From NCBI GenBank assembly GCA_000091205.1, contig AP006502.2: a stretch of DNA of 64,000 nucleotides; one strand, written 5' to 3'. Source of the stretch: Cyanidioschyzon merolae (taxonomy: Eukaryota). Below the pieces are notes generated by a model, which searched no databases, was not told the origin of the DNA, and saw nothing but the letters and a program-made list of their open reading frames with translations. Position 1 is the first letter of the stretch; every line of letters begins with the position of its first letter. Made by a program: the position numbers and the translations under genes. Below are positions 1,684 through 10,536 of this stretch, piece after piece.

Positions 1684-3207
1684 TTACCGTCGTTTTTTCT
1701 TACTTGGTTTGCGTTTGGATTTCGTGGATGGATCTTCGGTATCCACAGCATCCCCGTTGGTCTCGCTGGTCCGCGGCGTGAATCCCATGGCCTCCGGGTT
1801 GAGGCGTTCGTCGACAGCACCGTCGAGGGTGCGCGGGGCGCCCACTCGTTCGGGCTGCTTCGATGCCAGGTAACGCTTGATGCCAATAGTTTGGATTGTA
1901 GAGACGATATTATTGGTGACCCAGTACAATCCCAGGCCGCTGGGCACGTTCAGAGAGAACCATCCTACCATGAACGGGAGGAAGCGCAGAATCGCATTCG
2001 CTTGTTGCTGCTGCGGATCCTGAACCGGTGGCTGCAGAATCTTCTGACTGATGGACTGTGAAACCACCAAGAGGCACGGAAGGACCAGATACGCGATTGC
2101 ATCATGCCAGCCTATAGGCGGTGCACCGTTCTGGAACGGAAAGAGCCAGCTGGAAAGCCCCTGGCCCTGACGCACGGGGCCCTCGAGACTCGGCAACCAG
2201 AAGAATCCCTGATCCAACCGATTATCAGCGGCGAGGTTCATGAGCGCTCGATAGAGGGCTATCCAGACTGGCAACTGCACAAAGACTGGTAGACAACCAG
2301 TCAGCGGGTTCACTTTGGCCTCCTGGTACAGACGGGCCGTCTCGAGGTTCAGCAACTGTGGGTTGTCCCGATACCGCGCCTGAAGTTCACGCACTTTCGG
2401 CGCCAGCGCCTGCATCGCCATCGTGCTTTTCATCTGCTTATAGTTGAGCGGAAAAGTGATCGCCTTGACAATAATGGTCAGAAAAATGATAGCGAATCCA
2501 TAAGAGCCAGGAACACCGAGCGCTGCCAGGGTATCGCCGGTGCCCGTGATGATCGTCTCAATCAGGTGCACGAAACCGTTCCAGAGGCCTGCTTTCTGGG
2601 CCCCAGCTGCCGCAGTCGCTGCAGCAGCTGCACTCGTCGAGCCGTCAGCAGCATCGACCAGCAGAAGTGATGCACTAGCCAGCGCAAACGTAACCGTATG
2701 CCAGCTGTCCTGCAGCGCAGCTAGCGATTGACTCGGGTCGACGAACTGTAAACGAAGGGACTGCACACCAACCGAACGCCGGCGCGGCGACATCAAGCCT
2801 ACACGTCGTCGGTTTGGTTCACCACCAGGCCGCAGCCTGCAGCGCCGCCACGCACCCCCGAGGCCGCACCCGGCTGCCGTGTACCCGCACTGCCGCGAAG
2901 CGGTTGCAAGGGAACGCACTGACCCTGTGCCTGACGCATAAAGTCCAGCAACAAAGCCTATTTTACACCCGCAACTTCCAGCAGTCGGTCCAGTCGCAAG
3001 CACTGGAACAAAACGAAACAAAAGCCGCTGCTCGCTACGAGCAATGCTGTTTGTATCGTTCGCCTCCGCCTCCGTGTCCAGCTTTCGCCCAGACACCTCC
3101 AGCAAACGACCGCATATCCGCTGCGTTGACAGGATCTGCAACGCTCCCATACCTGATCCCAGTAATTCGACCTGAAAACGGTCGCAGGTACTACGCAGCA
3201 ACGGCAA
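1684..3207 (-). CDS. YidC/Oxa1/Alb3-family membrane-protein insertase (probably plastid ALBINO3-like)
   Basis: 507-aa uninterrupted ORF. The translation carries the insertase core 'NPLTGCLPVFVQLPVWIALYRALMN...GFFWLPSLEGP...GLGLYWVTNNIVSTIQ' and a Lys/Arg-rich C-terminal tail. The family call is by motif recall, not a database search. The N-terminal extension could be a transit peptide. Confidence 0.75.
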   Translation of the reverse strand: MPLLRSTCDRFQVELLGSGMGALQILSTQRICGRLLEVSGRKLDTEAEANDTNSIARSEQRLLFRFVPVLATGPTAGSCGCKIGFVAGLYASGTGSVRSLATASRQCGYTAAGCGLGGAWRRCRLRPGGEPNRRRVGLMSPRRRSVGVQSLRLQFVDPSQSLAALQDSWHTVTFALASASLLLVDAADGSTSAAAAATAAAGAQKAGLWNGFVHLIETIITGTGDTLAALGVPGSYGFAIIFLTIIVKAITFPLNYKQMKSTMAMQALAPKVRELQARYRDNPQLLNLETARLYQEAKVNPLTGCLPVFVQLPVWIALYRALMNLAADNRLDQGFFWLPSLEGPVRQGQGLSSWLFPFQNGAPPIGWHDAIAYLVLPCLLVVSQSISQKILQPPVQDPQQQQANAILRFLPFMVGWFSLNVPSGLGLYWVTNNIVSTIQTIGIKRYLASKQPERVGAPRTLDGAVDERLNPEAMGFTPRTSETNGDAVDTEDPSTKSKRKPSKKKRR

Positions 3208-4304
3208 TAGGTGTGAGAATAGCGGGCGGTGTCGACGAGCGAACTCCGTCCAGCGCTTCAGCAGGCCACTGTGTGAAGGGCGATGACGTCGACGGCGGCG
3301 GTGACAGAATCGATCGCGGCAGTACGATCGTCTCTGGTGCGGCGGAGGCGATGGCGGATATGCTGCGGCGCTTTACATGTCGACAGATTCCCAGGATTTC
3401 AAAGACCCGGAAGGCAACACGTTCAAAGTTCGTTGCTATGAAGCATGAGCTTTGGAAAGCGGGTTACGAAAGGTAACTCGCGTCGGGCATACCGTTCCCT
3501 TGCGGGCGAAGCGCACGTCGGCAGCGGGCGACAGCCCCGCATGCTGCACAGCGCCGAGCCCCTGCCTGAAAGAGCGTCCGCTGCGCTCGGGCGTCGCTAC
3601 CCAGCAGTAAGTTCGCAGAGTAGGCCTGCACGTGCTGCATAGTGACCGGAGCCCGTTTCCAGCAATACTTTGCGCGACTCGCAGACCATGGTTCACCGAC
3701 TTGAGGTAGGCTTGCATCAGCGGTCTTCCCGTTCGCAGGCGAAACTGCACTGAGCTGCTCGTTCACCTTGAAAGGTCGCGATTGGCAAGCACGGTACAAT
3801 GCAGAACATTGAGGGGGAACGGTACCGCATGTGCAAAGTGCTCACATCGATCGGCGTGCGGAACGATATGTACATCCATTTTCACGCGATACATATCAAC
3901 CATCATCATGGTTTGGCTTCTGGTGCCTCCAGACCAAACCCCGTGCTCAGAGGATCGCGCTTCTTTCGACGCATGCTGGTGCACTCGCCCGAGGACAGCG
4001 GGAACAGCAAACGCATGTCGCCGCAGTGCATATACGCTGGATGGACGACCACTCGCTTTCGAGCAGTCGACGCTCGCGAGTATTCAGCAAACGTCTTCAT
4101 CATGACGATGTCGCAGTTCCGAGGAATACGCTGTGACACAGCGGCCGGTGTCGCGTTCCTGGCATCCCGCTCCCTTGTTGGCGCTCGTGCGTCCGCATGT
4201 GCACCGAAGGACGCACCAGTGCGCGTCTACGCATTCGGGGTACCAGCTGCGTTGCGACGCCACCGAAAACTCGCGAGTACGCGAAGCTTTGCTGGACGCA
4301 CACC

Positions 4305-4931
4305 CTAGTATTGCTCAAAACGAGCACCAAGTAGAGCAGCACCTGCCCATGGAGTTGGTACGACAACAATGTCGTGCGTGGTAACCGAGCATTCAGGTGC
4401 TGAAGCGCGCAAACCCGTCACAACCGAAAATACCACCGTCATCGCGAGCGTCTCGCAGACAGTGCAGGAGGCGACGCGTACAACCAGGTCGCCTTGTAGG
4501 AGGCCTCCCTGGGCCGCTGGTGACCCAGCCTCTACCTGCACCACCTTTGCGAACGGTCTCAGGTTCGACTGACCCAGACTCGTCTCAGTCCAGTCTAAGC
4601 TTTGTGCTGGCTGGTTGTCTCCGGGGCGGTGTTCCCGGCTCGAGGCAGCCCGCACCGCTGGTGCGCTCTCCACGACTCGTGACGCAGACGCTGTAGACGG
4701 TGCGGTTTGCGTGTGTGCTGGCCCGCTTGGAAGCATCTCCGGAAGCAGCCTTCCAGTTTCTTTCATTATCAGATAATAGTCGGTTTGCAGGCGCACGAGA
4801 CGTTGACGATACTGGCGGATCTGGTGTACATCGCAGTCCGAACGGGGGAAGCCGTCCTCGTGAACGAGTGGATCTCGCACCCCGGCAGGCGTGGCTTCTA
4901 AGCAGGATACCAAGTGTTCAATGTCACGCAC
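4305..4931 (-). CDS. 26S proteasome non-ATPase regulatory subunit 9 (PSMD9/Nas2/p27)-like PDZ chaperone
   Basis: 208-aa ORF. C-terminal PDZ-like block 'FAKVVQVEAGSPAAQGGLLQGDLVV' and terminal 'VVVPTPWAGAALLG' resemble the conserved W-x-G-x-GLLGC end of Nas2/PSMD9. The N-terminal region is helical. The match is moderate. Confidence 0.5.
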   Translation of the reverse strand: MRDIEHLVSCLEATPAGVRDPLVHEDGFPRSDCDVHQIRQYRQRLVRLQTDYYLIMKETGRLLPEMLPSGPAHTQTAPSTASASRVVESAPAVRAASSREHRPGDNQPAQSLDWTETSLGQSNLRPFAKVVQVEAGSPAAQGGLLQGDLVVRVASCTVCETLAMTVVFSVVTGLRASAPECSVTTHDIVVVPTPWAGAALLGARFEQY

Positions 4932-5769
4932 GAATTCTTCTTACTGTAGGGCTAGCGCTAGTAGGCGCTGTACGCTGTCGGAGGTCATTTGTTCGACGTC
5001 TCAGACAGGCGAACGACGGCGCGTAGCTCCAGGCGTTGCCCCGGGAACCTTTACGGACGAGGTCGTTTACGAGGCTCAGCGTCCGAAGACCATAAAACGA
5101 AAGTATCATCGGAACTTGGCTCGAAAGGAATCTGGGCAGAGTGCTGACGCTGTATACGATTTTTGAATGACGACAACAACAGCGACAACCGGCCTCATGG
5201 CATGGTCAGAAATCGGGACTGTCGAGCAGTGGGGCGCACGAAAACCGCACAATTCAAACCAGTTTCTCATTCCAGCGTCTGTGCAGAATGGACTGCAAGA
5301 AACGGGAATAAACGTGTATCCGTAGTCGGGAAGACTGCGGCGCATAGTTTGTTTATGATCAATAAAACGAACGAAATTCCTGTTGAGTAGGGTGATGCAT
5401 ACCTCGCCCGCACAAGCGTAAGATACTACAATGGCTACGCTTTTGATAGAGGCGTCGAGGGGTATCGTGCCAGGCCCCTGCATCCCCTTGTCTGTCGGGG
5501 CGGTACTGCGATGGGCAGTAGCGTCGGCACCAGCGACAGAACCTATAGCAAGAGTTCATTCTACGTGAGTTTCCGATGTACAATACGTTGTTTTGGCTGC
5601 AGTGCACCGGTGAGAGCACGCATGTGCCAATGCGGGGTGTCGGACACGTGTCCTTCATCGATCGGTGCAGCGTCTCGCGCGGTGCACGCATCGCGCTCAG
5701 TGCGCGCACCTAGGAGATCAGGCAGGCGTGAGACACGACGCGCATGCCGCCGTTGAAGGGAAACGTAAT

Positions 5770-8260
5770 CGTGATCAGCAGCGTCTAGCTCTCGTGTTAA
5801 AGTTGTATTTTCGTTGACTTTATGGGCAAGTATAGTTTTCAGTTCAATTGTGTTTGAAAACTCAAACAAGTGTATTCTAGTGTTTTGTCGCAGTATATAA
5901 GAGGAGCGTTCAAAGAGGGTTCTTTTTCAAAAAAAAAAACTAAACAAGGAAAGTTATGAAAAAGCAAGTCGACGATCCTGGAGGCCCAGTGTCGCCGGCT
6001 GCCAGAAAGAAAACAAAACACAGTGCCGAGTCCAGAAGAAGAGGAGAAGAAAAAGAAGCAAAAGGAGGAGGCTCTACGTCGAGGGATGCAAGAAAGACGA
6101 CTGTACGACGAGAAGGTGGTGAAAGCTGGTCTTCTTGGACATATCAAGGATCCCTACAGGGAAAATTTGCGAGACGCTATCAGAAACCGTGTCGACTCGT
6201 ACTCCAAGAGTATTGTCAAAGCGTCGTCAGGACTGATGCACTCGGCGAGGGAGATGTATCGCGACGTGACGCACATGCAAACAGTCGAGGTCCCAGACGA
6301 GTTGTTCGATACGACCTCTATTCGATACTTGATGCTCGGTACAGGGGAAACGCGGACGGAAAATGAGCGAGTGCATGCCCTCCACGAAAAACATCCCTTC
6401 TACAGCTTCGAGGGTACTCGATACAGGGTTGACTCGTGTATTTACGAATACGGAGCGATAAAGTACCCCACGAGCCTGAATAAACATTTGACCGTGAACC
6501 TCGAACGTTTCATGATACGCGCCGTGTTTGCACTCTACCCGGGCATCTCTCGCAAAGCGATATGGATCATCATCGATAGCATCAAAAACGATAGTAAGAA
6601 TGAACAGGAGATCGAACTTGTTCACGAGAAGACATCATGCAGGAAAACGAATGAAGCTTCTGTAATCCGTGCGGCTATACAAGAGCACCGTGCAGCACTG
6701 GGGCTGGCGAGTCCAGCAGAAAAGATATCAGAGTTGAAAAAAGATAAGAAAAGATACGATCGCCCTGTCCTGCGCTATTCCATATTCCTGAACGGAGAAC
6801 TGGCACGCAGGGCCGATATGGAGCAGGGTGTGGAAGCAAATGCAGTGCCGGAGAAACGGGAAGCTGCGCTTCTGGCGAGGCATTTCAACGTCGTTCGGTT
6901 ACGCGAGATCAAGTCCCATTTGTGACGATCGACTCCACAGTCTTTCAGGACATCATGAAGGAGATCTGTCCGGATTTCGATGTCAGCAGGGAGGTGTTCT
7001 CCGGCGAAAACCGGGAGACGTTTGAAATCGAAGATATTCTGCTTCGATTTCAAACGCCTCAAAGTGAGCAAGCAAAAGCTATCCGCGGGGATGATCGAAA
7101 CCGATGGCGTAGCCATGTGAGTTGACTATCGGCGGTTGAAAAGCGATCGTCCTGGCCCGTGTTCGATATTGCCCGTGACGAAGCATGAAGATGAGAAGGA
7201 GGCGGGTCCTGCGACGCAGGAGGTGGAGGATAACGGCTTTATCGTTGGCGCGGTGAAGCATGATGAAAACAAGAAGGCGGATCTTGCCACACAGAAAGTG
7301 CAGGATAACGACTTTGTCGTTGGCGCGGACCCTGGGAACACGAATATCATAGCCATCGCAGTACCGAAACGTGCGGAATATGGTCACGACGGTAACTTGC
7401 GCCAGAAGGACATGGGTCTGTCGAGATTCTCGACAGCGAGATACTATCGAGAATCCGGTATAATGAATGCGAGGAAGAAAATCGAGACATGGAATGCAGG
7501 AATGAAGGAGCACCTGGAAGCCTTGAGCGAGTTGACTAGCCGAGGAGCGGACTTTGAAGCTTTTCGGAATTTCATGGAAGTTCGTGTTGCGCATTGGGAT
7601 GCACTGTGGGAGGAGTATACAAAGCCCTGGTGGGATCGTCTACGTATTAATCTATACTGTCGGAAGCAAGCTGCATTCAAGAAAATTTTCGATGAGTTCA
7701 GCGCCTTGGAGGAGGATGAAAGTCAGAGGCTCGCATTAGCGAACGGAGCAGGGCGCTGGGCTCCGAAAAAAGGGTGTACACCAGCTCCAACTACACGAAC
7801 ATACAAGGAGTGCGCAAGGCGTTTCGCTACGATACCTGCAGATGAGTTCCGAACATCGTATACATACCATGGACTCGGGTGCACATTTCAAAAGGTCGAG
7901 ATGGGAAAGTGTTAACGGAGCCCTGAAGATATAAAAAAGTACGGACCGCTGACAGAAGAGCAACTGGAAAGAAAAGCGAAGGCTTGAGGGCTACTCGCAT
8001 TAGTAAGTACAACCAATGGCAAGAAACTTATGGGATTCCTGTATCGCGACTTTGAGGCCGCTATCAATATAAGGGCATGTGCGGTGCTGGAGCATAGACC
8101 TCCAGAGTTGACACGAGAGAATTTTATGGGGCAACCTGTCAAAGTGGGACTATATGAGAAAACTATGAAACCAGTAGCAGGTGGCCGGTCGAGAGAAACT
8201 GGGAGGCGTCTGCAGCTCAGCTGGCGACTTCGTGTCTAGGGCGCGGGTCACGCGCCACTA
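5770..8260 (+). mobile_element. AT-rich island carrying a disrupted TnpB/Fanzor-like (IS605 OrfB-family RuvC nuclease) gene, copy A
   Basis: Composition drops sharply relative to the flanks (A-runs, 'tataagag', a(10) near 5930-5945). It contains a roughly 2.2-kb reading frame broken by stops and frameshifts (see the pseudogene entry). The island ends just 5' of the ABC transporter ORF. Confidence 0.45.
6023..8239 (+). pseudogene. TnpB/Fanzor-like RuvC nuclease, frame-disrupted (ORF pieces 6023-6925, 6922-7125, 7136-7915, 8030-8239)
   Basis: Pieces 6023-6925, 7136-7915 and 8030-8239 share one frame (position mod 3 = 2). In-frame stops were read at 6923, 6956, 7118, 7913 and 7985, and piece 6922-7125 bridges the first gap in a +1 frame. 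Motifs: RuvC-I-like 'DFVVGADPGNTNIIAIAV', 'EFRTSYTYHGLGC' (the TSxxC position of TnpB), and after the stops 'FLYRDFEAAINIRA', which is the RDxNAAxNI RuvC-III signature of TnpB/Fanzor/Cas12. The ORF 7136 'start' is TTG, so the track uses non-ATG starts. Confidence 0.5.
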
Positions 8261-8385
8261 CTATACTTCCGACCGCAGCAACGTTTGGTGGGTGAAGGCA
8301 GCACGCCTCATTTCGAGTGCTGTGCTCGAGTTTATACCCCAGCTGCGGGAACTTTTGCGGATAGCCATTTCTCGCCAAGTGTCTC

Positions 8386-10536
8386 GTGTGTTCGCAGGTA
8401 CCTATGGCTCGTCGATGGAAACTAAAGCTTCCAGAGTTGCGTTTCCTCAACTGGCGGCGCTGGGAAGCCTACACGGACAGTTGGGAGACGTCCTCTTCCA
8501 CGGACGTGGAAAAGCTCGTCGAACCAGCACACCGTGAAACGCTGTCGCTTCCAGACACCAGCGAGGTGCGTCGTCTACTTGCGAGTCTTGCACCGTTCGA
8601 ACTAGAGCGTCTGCAGTCAGTTCAAGCTGTATTCTGGCTGCTGAAGCCGTTCCTGTGGCCGCGGGAGTGGCGCATCCGGTTCTACGTGGCGCTCACCTTC
8701 GTGCTCACTGTTGCGGGCAAGGTGCTGACGGTGCTCGCACCGGTAGCGCTGAAACGCGTCATTGACGCGCTCGCGTCAGCACCCGTTGGCTCGTCCACCG
8801 CTGCTGTTCGCAAGGCAGTCACCTACACCGTACTATATGCAGCGTCACGCTTTGGTATGCAGCTGCTGAACGACGGCCAACGCTATGCATGGCTAACTGT
8901 CTCGCAGACGGCAACTCGTGCCATAGCCTTGACGACTTTTGCGCATCTGCACTCGCTCTCCATCGATTTTCACTGGCAGAGACGCACTGGAGAAGTCATT
9001 CGCGTTATGGACCGGGGCGTCGCATCCCTCGGTGAAGTACTCTCGGTTTTCGTATTCACCGTATTCCCAACCGCGATTGAGCTCTTGCTAGTGCTCTGGG
9101 TTTTTTTCGCCATGGGAAGCTTCTGGATTGCCATCACGGTACTCGTGTCGGTCCTGGTATACGGTGTGTACAGCAAGCAGCTTACCGAATGGCGAACGTC
9201 GTACCGCAAACTGTACAATGAGCGCGATAACGCCGCGGAGGCGCGTATGGTTGATAGCCTCCTCAACTCGGAAACGGTGAAATTGTTTACAGCAGAGGCG
9301 CGAGAAGTCAACCGCTACACGGAAGCCTATGTAGCGCTGCAGGAGAGCGAACGCACCCTGATAGCTACGCTGGGGCTGTTAAACTCTGGACAGTCGGTGA
9401 TCATTAGTTTGGGTGTTGGTATCTCGATGGTTATGGCAACGAGGCGCGTGGCACGCGGCGAAGCGAGCGCCGGCGACCTCGTCATGGTGAACGCCTACAT
9501 CCTGCAGCTGTATCAGCCGTTGCGGTGGCTCGGTTCTGCATACCGGCAGATTATGAGGGCACTTACCGATCTGGACAAGCTCTCAAGACTTCTTGCCCTG
9601 GAACCAACCGTCCGAGACTTGCCTGGTGCGCCAGCGCTGCGCCGTCGACACGGACAAGTGGAGTTCCACCAGGTGACCTTTCACTACGATGTCCTGTGGA
9701 GCGGCACGGAACCGGGTGCAGCGACGCGGGCCCAGATGCCCAGTACCGCCACTGACACTGCCACTGCTACTAGTAGTAGTAGTGGTGGTGGTGGTGGTGC
9801 TGGTGGTGCTGGTGGTGTTCACAACCTGAGTTTTACCATTCCGCCCCAACGGGTCGTTGCGGTTGTCGGTCCGTCTGGAGCCGGAAAGAGCACCATCGTG
9901 CGTCTGCTGCTTCGTCTGATTGACCCGCAACAAGGTGCCGTCTACATCGACGGTCAGAATATTGCACATGTATCCCAGCAGAGTGTTCGGCATGCGATTG
10001 GCGTCGTCGCTCAGGATCCTGTCCTCTTCAATGAGACCATTGCATACAACATTGCATATGGTGTCGATGCCGCTGCCACACCGGCTTGTATAGAGGCAGC
10101 GGCACGAGCCGCCCATATCCATGACTTTATCACCAAGCTCCCTGACGGTTATCAGACGGTCGTTGGCGAACGCGGCGTGCGACTTAGCGGCGGCGAGAAA
10201 CAACGCGTCGCCATCGCTCGAGCGATTCTGAAGAATCCCTCCATTCTGGTGCTGGATGAGGCCACCTCGGCGCTCGATACCGCAACGGAACGGGCGATTC
10301 AAGCCAACCTAATGGAGATGCGGACGGGACGCACGACACTCGTGGTGGCACATCGCCTCTCCACTGTCATCGACGCAGATGAAATCCTCGTTCTGAACGG
10401 GAACGGTGAGATTGTCGAGCGTGGTGCGCACGCCGAACTGGTGTCGCGACCTCAGGGCGCTTACCGCGCCATGTGGGAAGCCCAGGCACGCGCCCAAGTC
10501 ACCACATCGGATAGCGTGCCAAGTACGACGGCATGA
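8386..10536 (+). CDS. ABC transporter, B-family half-transporter (TMD+NBD), ATM1/HMT1-like
   Basis: 716-aa ORF with a six-helix transmembrane domain followed by an NBD. Motifs: Walker A 'VGPSGAGKST', ABC signature 'LSGGEKQRVAIARA', Walker B 'ILVLDEATSALD', H-loop 'VVAHRLST'. A low-complexity insert 'TATDTATATSSSSGGGGGAGGAGG' is encoded by triplet repeats near 9745-9830. Confidence 0.85.
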   Translation: MCSQVPMARRWKLKLPELRFLNWRRWEAYTDSWETSSSTDVEKLVEPAHRETLSLPDTSEVRRLLASLAPFELERLQSVQAVFWLLKPFLWPREWRIRFYVALTFVLTVAGKVLTVLAPVALKRVIDALASAPVGSSTAAVRKAVTYTVLYAASRFGMQLLNDGQRYAWLTVSQTATRAIALTTFAHLHSLSIDFHWQRRTGEVIRVMDRGVASLGEVLSVFVFTVFPTAIELLLVLWVFFAMGSFWIAITVLVSVLVYGVYSKQLTEWRTSYRKLYNERDNAAEARMVDSLLNSETVKLFTAEAREVNRYTEAYVALQESERTLIATLGLLNSGQSVIISLGVGISMVMATRRVARGEASAGDLVMVNAYILQLYQPLRWLGSAYRQIMRALTDLDKLSRLLALEPTVRDLPGAPALRRRHGQVEFHQVTFHYDVLWSGTEPGAATRAQMPSTATDTATATSSSSGGGGGAGGAGGVHNLSFTIPPQRVVAVVGPSGAGKSTIVRLLLRLIDPQQGAVYIDGQNIAHVSQQSVRHAIGVVAQDPVLFNETIAYNIAYGVDAAATPACIEAAARAAHIHDFITKLPDGYQTVVGERGVRLSGGEKQRVAIARAILKNPSILVLDEATSALDTATERAIQANLMEMRTGRTTLVVAHRLSTVIDADEILVLNGNGEIVERGAHAELVSRPQGAYRAMWEAQARAQVTTSDSVPSTTA

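Follow-up and report, generated by a model that had tools for sequence, protein, structure and literature searches.

The DNA analysed here, a stretch of 64,000 nucleotides (nt) from contig AP006502.2 of assembly GCA_000091205.1 (hereafter the window), is part of nuclear chromosome 20 of Cyanidioschyzon merolae, a hot-spring red alga that grows at about 40-55 °C and low pH. Between positions 5247/5688 and 8305 of its + strand, the window very likely carries a fixed, pseudogenised copy of a Fanzor1 transposon of C. merolae, most probably a member of the published CMe-1A family. We present the homology of its broken nuclease gene, the repeat family to which it belongs, the lesions that inactivated it and the remnant of a structured 3′ end at which related systems encode a guide RNA.

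A Fanzor1-type RuvC nuclease gene

A preliminary description of this DNA had proposed a frame-disrupted TnpB/Fanzor-like RuvC nuclease gene. This identification is supported, and specified to the Fanzor1 type, by homology, by profile comparison and by fold. The translation obtained by joining the pieces of the open reading frame (ORF) shared 59% identity with P0001, a near-intact relative of 752 amino acids (aa), over 95% of the length (E 3.4e-291), and had 36 close relatives at 50-75% identity. An exhaustive hidden Markov model (HMM) search of 1.84 billion proteins yielded 1,459 relatives, and P0001 was aligned with 75 distant ones (26-40% identity) in an alignment of 76 sequences, A4. Run against the sequences of the Protein Data Bank (PDB), the A4 profile matched only Fanzor1 chains, namely those of Parasitella PpFz1 (9cf0, E 3e-20), Spizellomyces SpuFz1 (8gkh, E 7.8e-12) and Guillardia GtFz1 (9cer, E 3.3e-6). 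The AlphaFold2 model of P0001 built on A4 (predicted local distance difference test score [pLDDT] 81.7, predicted template modelling score 0.80) displayed the Fanzor/TnpB fold (WED-REC-RuvC-TNB), this being the fold of an intact relative and not of the broken window ORF. When the model was searched against the PDB with Foldseek, the top seven matches were Fanzor1 chains (SpuFz, PpFz and GtFz; E 4.5e-17 to 8e-14), aligned over the whole length with target-normalised TM-scores of at most 0.71; Cas12 enzymes came far behind (E of at least 1e-2).

Searches with one sequence or with a shallow profile did not show this. Pfam hmmscan of the joined window translation returned just a chance-level match to DUF6359, phmmer of the same translation against PDB sequences returned nothing relevant, a profile of 20 close relatives had no match in the PDB, and AlphaFold2 run on the shallow alignment of close relatives gave an unusable model (pLDDT 33). 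Profile and structure prediction succeeded only after the distant relatives from the 1.84-billion-protein search had been added. DUF8286 (PF26935) appeared as a weak precomputed match, and a literature search for PF26935 found nothing.

The catalytic motifs of the nuclease, and a repeat that precedes them, are still readable in the window copy at the following positions.

7180-7328 (+): two tandem 75-bp (25-aa) repeats directly before RuvC-I (Tandem Repeats Finder: period 75, 2.0 copies, 81% matches)
7310-7363 (+): RuvC-I-like stretch DFVVGADPGNTNIIAIAV, read in the sequence
7322-7339 (+): RuvC-I motif GADPGN, catalytic Asp kept (D484 of DPG is invariant in A4)
7835-7882 (+): PADEFRTSYTYHGLGC, TS motif preceded by the alternative catalytic Glu of Fanzor type (E656 of DEFRTS is invariant in A4)
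8042-8077 (+): RuvC-III motif YRDFEAAINIRA, catalytic Asp kept (R724, D725, N727, A729, N731 and I732 are nearly invariant in A4)

The motifs of RuvC-I and RuvC-III are those read in the preliminary description. The TS-x-x-C motif that it also named is there as far as the TS is concerned; the spacing is not literal, the first Cys lying 7 residues after the TS. Fanzors are known for a rearranged catalytic site with an alternative glutamate (PMC10530073), and the rearranged RuvC-II described there is present in this family: the canonical Glu is replaced by Gly (G623 in AYGAG, invariant in A4 and taken as the canonical position by HMM alignment rather than by structural superposition), with the alternative E656 located downstream, before the TS. 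In the window, the two sites read ANGAGRW (7730-7759) and ADEFRTS (within 7835-7882). The 25-aa repeat unit (KHE-E-KKEA-PATQ-VQDND-VV-A), the last copy of which provides the residues leading into the catalytic DPG, varies in number among family members (e.g. in metagenomic loci L025, L044 and L003), and locus L001, the contig encoding P0001, has two units (150 bp) more than the window. The repeat region is disordered in the model, with pLDDT below 50 for P0001 residues 384-469.

The repeat family, its boundaries and its 3′ end

The locus is a member of a family of transposable elements with many copies. When metagenome contigs were scanned, at least 419 related stretches came to light in hot-spring metagenomes, of which 80 loci were retrieved. 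In BLASTN comparisons, the window showed 74-82% identity to more than 80 loci, the flanks of which are unrelated to its own; L001, for instance, was 78-81% identical at the nucleotide level to window positions 5688-8266 and had unrelated flanks. The window copy of this dispersed repeat, of ~2.6-3.1 kb, consists of two parts.

5688-8305 (+): Fanzor1 element core (CMe-1A-type), common to all copies, delimited by BLASTN and column conservation
5247-5687 (+): subfamily-specific, non-coding 5′ module, shared with few copies at 74-80% identity

BLASTN homology started at 5688-5720 in most copies and ended at 8262-8287, and column conservation among 40 full-length copies reached background at about 8305-8310. 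The extent of 5770-8260 given initially therefore lies inside the element and is too short at both ends. The compositional island noted at the same time is real, with a GC content of 0.44-0.54 over 5751-8250 vs 0.55-0.62 in the flanks. Upstream of 5688, several groups of copies each have a different 5′ module. That of the window is also found in L012, L024, L043, L085, L076, L041 and the chimeric contig L009 described below, with the shared stretch starting at 5247, 5269 or 5455, and is ~125 bp shorter than in the fuller group-A copies, which have an extra upstream stretch (L012:1183). The 5′ boundary of the core (window 5688-5712, with equivalents in all loci) coincides with a short hairpin, GCGCTC-GGT-GAGCGC, and in other subfamilies the pairing is kept with other bases (GTGCG...CGCAC, GCTA...TAGC).

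These properties agree with those of CMe-1A, the single Fanzor1 family reported in C. merolae (Bao & Jurka 2013, Mobile DNA 4:12; PMC3627910). There, CMe-1A is described as having about 150 copies, each ~80% identical to a consensus of ~3 kb, as being without terminal inverted repeats (TIRs) and with undetermined target-site duplications (TSDs), and as sharing its 5′ 635 bp with the repeat TE-N2_CMe, an alternative 5′ part (PMC3627910). The window element has the same host, is multicopy, shows ~80% identity among copies, measures ~3 kb, lacks TIRs, has no readable TSD and encodes a single Fanzor1 ORF, and its mosaic 5′ modules are consistent with the shared 5′ part of the description. From host, copy number, divergence, length, absence of TIRs and Fanzor1 homology, we infer, strongly, that it most probably belongs to CMe-1A. 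The element family itself is thus already known, the Fanzor1 content of C. merolae having been published in 2013.

The family is in general old. Intact paralogues, the search for which had been proposed at the outset, were not encountered among the 40 full-length metagenome copies, in every one of which the ORF is interrupted somewhere between its ancestral ATG and its natural stop. Nucleotide conservation along the element was flat (0.85-0.93). Third codon positions in the RuvC half were nevertheless less conserved among copies (0.84) than first and second ones (0.92 and 0.93), a signature indicating that part of the diversification of the family took place under selection for the protein. 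It agrees with the remark of Bao and Jurka on the long-lasting coding capacity of the family (PMC3627910).

Two side observations concern the surroundings of other copies. In L007 (4-1396, minus strand) and L081 (2-605), the element is accompanied within 3 kb by another copy of itself, either incomplete or inverted, a finding suggestive of nested or clustered insertions. In another metagenome contig (L004/L005:814-2710), an RVT_1 (reverse-transcriptase) ORF is situated just upstream of a Fanzor1 copy; a mobile element of a different class thus occurs beside family members in these genomes.

The 3′ end of the element is where a guide RNA would be looked for, since characterised Fanzors draw theirs from the 3′ non-coding region by the right end of the transposon, often overlapping the end of the ORF (PMC10530073, PMC10432273). 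Following the stop codon (8237-8239), ~65 nt are conserved among copies; they begin with a short hairpin (GGCG...CGCC) and continue with a CCACTACTGTAC box that hardly varies and a terminal hairpin. In 29 of 56 copies, the stem of this last hairpin extends over 6-19 bp without interruption. The same terminal stem is made of different bases depending on the subfamily (e.g. CGTTCGA/TCGAACG vs GTTTTTC/GAAAGAC), with further differences in the outer stems. The last 145-147 nt of L027, L012 and L005, which are better-preserved copies from different subfamilies, adopt the same two-domain fold (-69 to -72 kcal/mol, z -4.1 to -6.6, 0 of 200 shuffles as good), in which CAGUAGUGGGUGG of the ORF tail forms a long-range helix with CCGCCACUACUG of the untranslated region, followed by the terminal hairpin. 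On thermodynamic grounds only, this ~145-nt fold is plausibly the best candidate for the omegaRNA scaffold of the family. In the window copy, the following feature corresponds to it.

8163-8305 (+): decayed remnant of the structured 3′ end, candidate omegaRNA scaffold, located by folding

Its layout can still be traced, with a helix joining about 8172-8187 to 8254-8266 and a terminal hairpin at about 8275-8305; the fold, in contrast to that of the better copies, has been lost, the window segment folding no better than random sequence (z +0.19). By analogy with other Fanzors, the guide would be the flank just past about 8305. The interval of 8.15-8.40 kb first suggested for the guide RNA was therefore roughly right for the family, except that the structure ends at ~8305, short of 8.40 kb, and no longer exists in the window. 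Conservation does not locate the omegaRNA, as no 3′ peak was seen along the element, and Rfam returned no match.

Hairpins at both boundaries raise the question of whether the element is a single-strand-type transposon, similar to IS200/IS605 or to Helitrons, whose hairpins would act at the DNA level as signals to an HUH transposase provided in trans. The TIRs mentioned as a possibility in the preliminary description were looked for at the element boundaries and none was found, consistent with the description of CMe-1A (PMC3627910). A 14-19 bp hairpin marks the 3′ boundary and retains its pairing with different sequences from one subfamily to the next, the GCGCTC-NNN-GAGCGC hairpin and its variants mark the 5′ boundary of the core, and in other species Helitrons carry Fanzor1 genes (PMC10530073). 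Against such a transposon stand the loci examined, in which no HUH or Rep-helicase gene was seen (without systematic search), and the termini, for which neither Helitron-type ends (5′ TC, 3′ CTRR) nor AT target sites could be established. The 3′ hairpin, moreover, could just as well be the 3′ stem of an omegaRNA, and the two roles are not mutually exclusive because right-end DNA and omegaRNA overlap in IS200/IS605 elements. We consider a hairpin-ended transposon of this kind quite unlikely as an alternative to the decayed Fanzor1 copy described above.

On its 3′ side, the element abuts a gene. Five ORFs of the window are exact matches to annotated proteins of C. merolae 10D (BAM83086-83089 and BAM83092), among which BAM83086 is an ABCB6-type transporter with its ATG at 8404, BAM83087 is E2F, BAM83088 is CMT068C and BAM83089 is CMT069C. 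As only ~100 bp separate the 3′ end of the element (~8305) from the ATG of the transporter gene, the promoter of the latter must be located very near or within the transposon remnant. The same junction between element and transporter was found, with near-identical sequence, in two independent assemblies of related strains (ENA and Logan contigs), both of which break inside the 3′ end of the element. Thus, the insertion is old and common to related strains. This sharing might be taken to mean that the remnant was co-opted, its 3′ end supplying a promoter or 5′-untranslated region to the ABCB6-type gene and being retained for that reason. Shared presence is, however, expected of any old fixed insertion, the ENA and Logan contigs simply break in a repeat, and decay proceeds all along the element at rates that look neutral; co-option consequently appears very unlikely to us. 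Under the preferred interpretation of a dead Fanzor1 copy, the only plausible present-day effect of the remnant would be passive, that of upstream sequence for the neighbouring transporter gene.

Decay of the window copy

The reading frame of the window copy and the putative leader that precedes it were delineated by comparison with the other copies.

5956-8239 (+): Fanzor1 pseudogene, extending from its ancestral start codon, ATG (MKKQVDDPGG...), to the natural TAG at 8237-8239, by homology to P0001
5894-5939 (+): TATA-like motif GTATATAAG (~5894) and A(11) run (5929-5939), just upstream of the ancestral ATG, read in the sequence
6003-6012 (+): lesion 1, an additional base in a purine run, by which the ORF body is uncoupled from the ATG at 5956
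6917-6921 (+): lesion 2, a 1-bp deletion (~6919; CCCA-TTT vs CACATTT elsewhere) shifting to the +1 frame
7015-7060 (+): lesion 3, net gain of 7 bp, returning to the main frame at about 7037
7118-7120 (+): lesion 4, TGA, against TGT (Cys) in other copies
7913-7915 (+): lesion 5, TAA where other copies have CAA/CAG (Gln)
7985-7987 (+): lesion 6, TGA where other copies have CGA (Arg)
near 8014 (+): lesion 7, an in-frame 3-bp deletion

The equivalent of the ATG at 5956 is in frame with the body of the ORF in L005, L008, L031 and L085, and the position of the natural stop is common to the copies. The TATA-like motif and the A run, reported initially as lying near 5.8-5.95 kb, were confirmed with the correction that the run is of 11 A; the same arrangement precedes the ORF in L001, and the two probably constitute the putative promoter and leader of the element itself. 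The ORF pieces 6023-6925, 7136-7915 and 8030-8239 exist and share one frame, as the preliminary description had it. Its +1 bridge (6922-7125) is homologous coding sequence as far as ~7030, the second half of this 67-aa ORF not being real protein. The frameshift near 6003-6012 had escaped the earlier reader. The site of lesion 3 bears a 19-nt, 95% complementary inverted repeat (7015-7033, GAGACGTTTGAAATCGAAG, and 7042-7060, CTTCGATTTCAAACGCCTC, with an 8-nt spacer) where the other copies have just a 7-nt imperfect palindrome (GAGACGT...ACGTCTC); the lesion resembles the outcome of template switching at a quasi-palindrome.

With three frameshifts and three nonsense codons, the window copy does not contain an intact ORF. 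Since, in addition, its 3′ fold is lost, it cannot work: the gene is dead, with its catalytic motifs still readable. Whether the disruptions are decay or small introns had initially been left as alternatives, and the comparison with other copies decides for decay, given that the stops fall on the Cys, Gln and Arg codons of relatives (TGT, CAA/CAG and CGA), that the indels amount to +1, -1 and +7 bp, and that the sequence flanking each stop remains colinear with the coding sequence of relatives. The scarcity of introns in C. merolae, which has a few dozen in its whole genome, further counts against splicing. Thus, although the three catalytic motifs are readable and many Fanzor genes of other eukaryotes contain introns (PMC10530073), the chance that the gene is functional, with its stops and frame changes spliced out or bypassed by recoding, is next to nil, because each of the three in-frame stops differs by a single base from the Cys, Gln or Arg codon of other copies and lies in colinear, coding surroundings, frame changes of +1, -1 and +7 bp leave no extra sequence to splice out, and near-intact relatives read through the same positions without a gap.

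One contig, L009 (Ga0078972_1003310), is 99% identical to the window throughout its left flank and the initial part of the element (compared over window 3019-8260). Between about 6030 and 6900, it switches to sequence that is ~83% identical and devoid of the lesions of the window, and its right flank is not the ABC transporter. L009 is either an assembly chimera across the repeat or the product of recombination between copies. It was rejected as an orthologous copy on account of its switch to the sequence of another copy and was therefore excluded from the dating of the lesions.

Weighing the evidence and comparison with known systems

Several findings weigh against the assignment of the locus to a Fanzor1 element of the CMe-1A family equipped with a guide RNA. 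The Pfam domain Cas12f1-like_TNB (PF07282) remains sub-threshold in relatives (E 0.002-0.23). A C4 zinc finger between the TS motif and the RD, which belongs to the original Fanzor/TnpB signature of 2013 (PMC3627910), is unrecognisable in this clade, which has His-His...Cys...Cys instead. The region after the TS motif is degenerate, reading TSYTYHGLGCTFQKVEMGKC in the window and TSYTHHELGC...EKC in relatives, with two Cys and one or two His rather than CxxC...CxxC, and the A4 consensus keeps one of the Cys; the C. merolae Fanzor1 was nevertheless placed in the Fanzor1 family when it was published (PMC3627910). The name CMe-1A was assigned from described properties and not by alignment to the Repbase consensus. 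An empty site sought through contigs with homologues of the ABC transporter was not found and no TSD was readable. As to the 3′ fold, covariation was absent, pair counts in 46 copies, made on helices from single-sequence folds, being no better than in shuffled controls although 86% were paired, RNAalifold predicted no pairs on the raw 46-copy alignment of the 3′ end, and its role as an omegaRNA is one that we infer. 

Taking these points into account, we propose that the ancestral element comprised its own TATA-like leader and one intron-less ORF of ~750-790 aa. The product was a Fanzor1, TnpB-like RuvC nuclease using the Asp of DPG, the alternative Glu of DEFRTS and the Asp of RD-x-x-AA-x-NI, with a disordered linker of 25-aa repeats in variable number just before RuvC-I. 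The strongly structured ~145 nt of the 3′ end, which overlap the last ~75 nt of the ORF and stop at the element boundary, may have been transcribed as the omegaRNA scaffold, with the adjoining flank as guide. By analogy with Fanzor and TnpB systems, the resulting ribonucleoprotein would cut matching DNA and thereby favour the retention or spread of the element. It is possible, albeit doubtful in our view, that the 3′ fold (CCACTACTGTAC box helix plus 14-19 bp hairpin) is the omegaRNA of a thermoacidophile Fanzor1, that a protein resurrected from the consensus would, together with this RNA, be an active, heat-tolerant RNA-guided nuclease, and that the hairpins at both core ends reflect an IS200/IS605-like mobility in a eukaryotic nuclear genome. 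Even then, the window copy would be dead.

The locus itself is of little consequence, being one decayed copy of a published transposon family in a well-studied genome, and for annotation purposes the element should be masked rather than its ORF fragments called as genes. The family, on the other hand, is abundant in natural hot-spring Cyanidioschyzon populations, and this abundance, the codon-position signature and the structured 3′ ends would together allow a Fanzor1 and guide-RNA pair to be reconstructed. The 3′ end of the better-preserved copies is accordingly a modest lead towards a Fanzor/guide-RNA pair from a thermoacidophilic eukaryote.

Among known systems, CMe-1A is the closest. Compared by description, nothing contradictory was found between it and the window element, with which it shares organism, multicopy nature, ~80% identity, ~3-kb length, lack of TIRs, undetermined TSDs, one Fanzor1 ORF and a 5′ part that is alternative or shared; the window copy differs from it in being 5′-truncated and dead. 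Two features of the family, its structured 3′ end and its 25-aa repeats of variable number, have no mention in the part of the description consulted. Bacterial and archaeal TnpB of IS200/IS605 and IS607 elements (OMEGA systems) and Cas12f are more distant in fold (Cas12 Foldseek E of at least 1e-2), in their Cas12f1-like_TNB domain, sub-threshold here, and in the catalytic Glu, rearranged here, and the C. merolae element resides in a eukaryotic nucleus with no TnpA partner seen. They resemble it in their RuvC nuclease architecture and, for the TnpB systems, in hairpin-containing ends and in the absence of TIRs; the omegaRNA of these systems is encoded where the gene finishes, at the right end of the element, which is the location of the candidate fold here. 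The Fanzor1 enzymes of solved structure, SpuFz1 (8GKH, 9CEU-9CEZ), PpFz1 (9CF0-9CF3) and GtFz1 (9CER-9CET), share only 13-15% sequence identity with the C. merolae family, which is set apart by its disordered tandem-repeat insert before RuvC-I, by its thermoacidophilic red algal host and by the lack of conservation of the CxxC...CxxC zinc-ribbon cysteines found in PpFz1 and SpuFz1. What the solved enzymes have in common with it is the DPG-type RuvC-I, the alternative Glu of DEF-x-TS and the RD-x-x-AA of RuvC-III, and in those that have been characterised the guide RNA originates at the element's 3′ end, the same place as the candidate fold described here.

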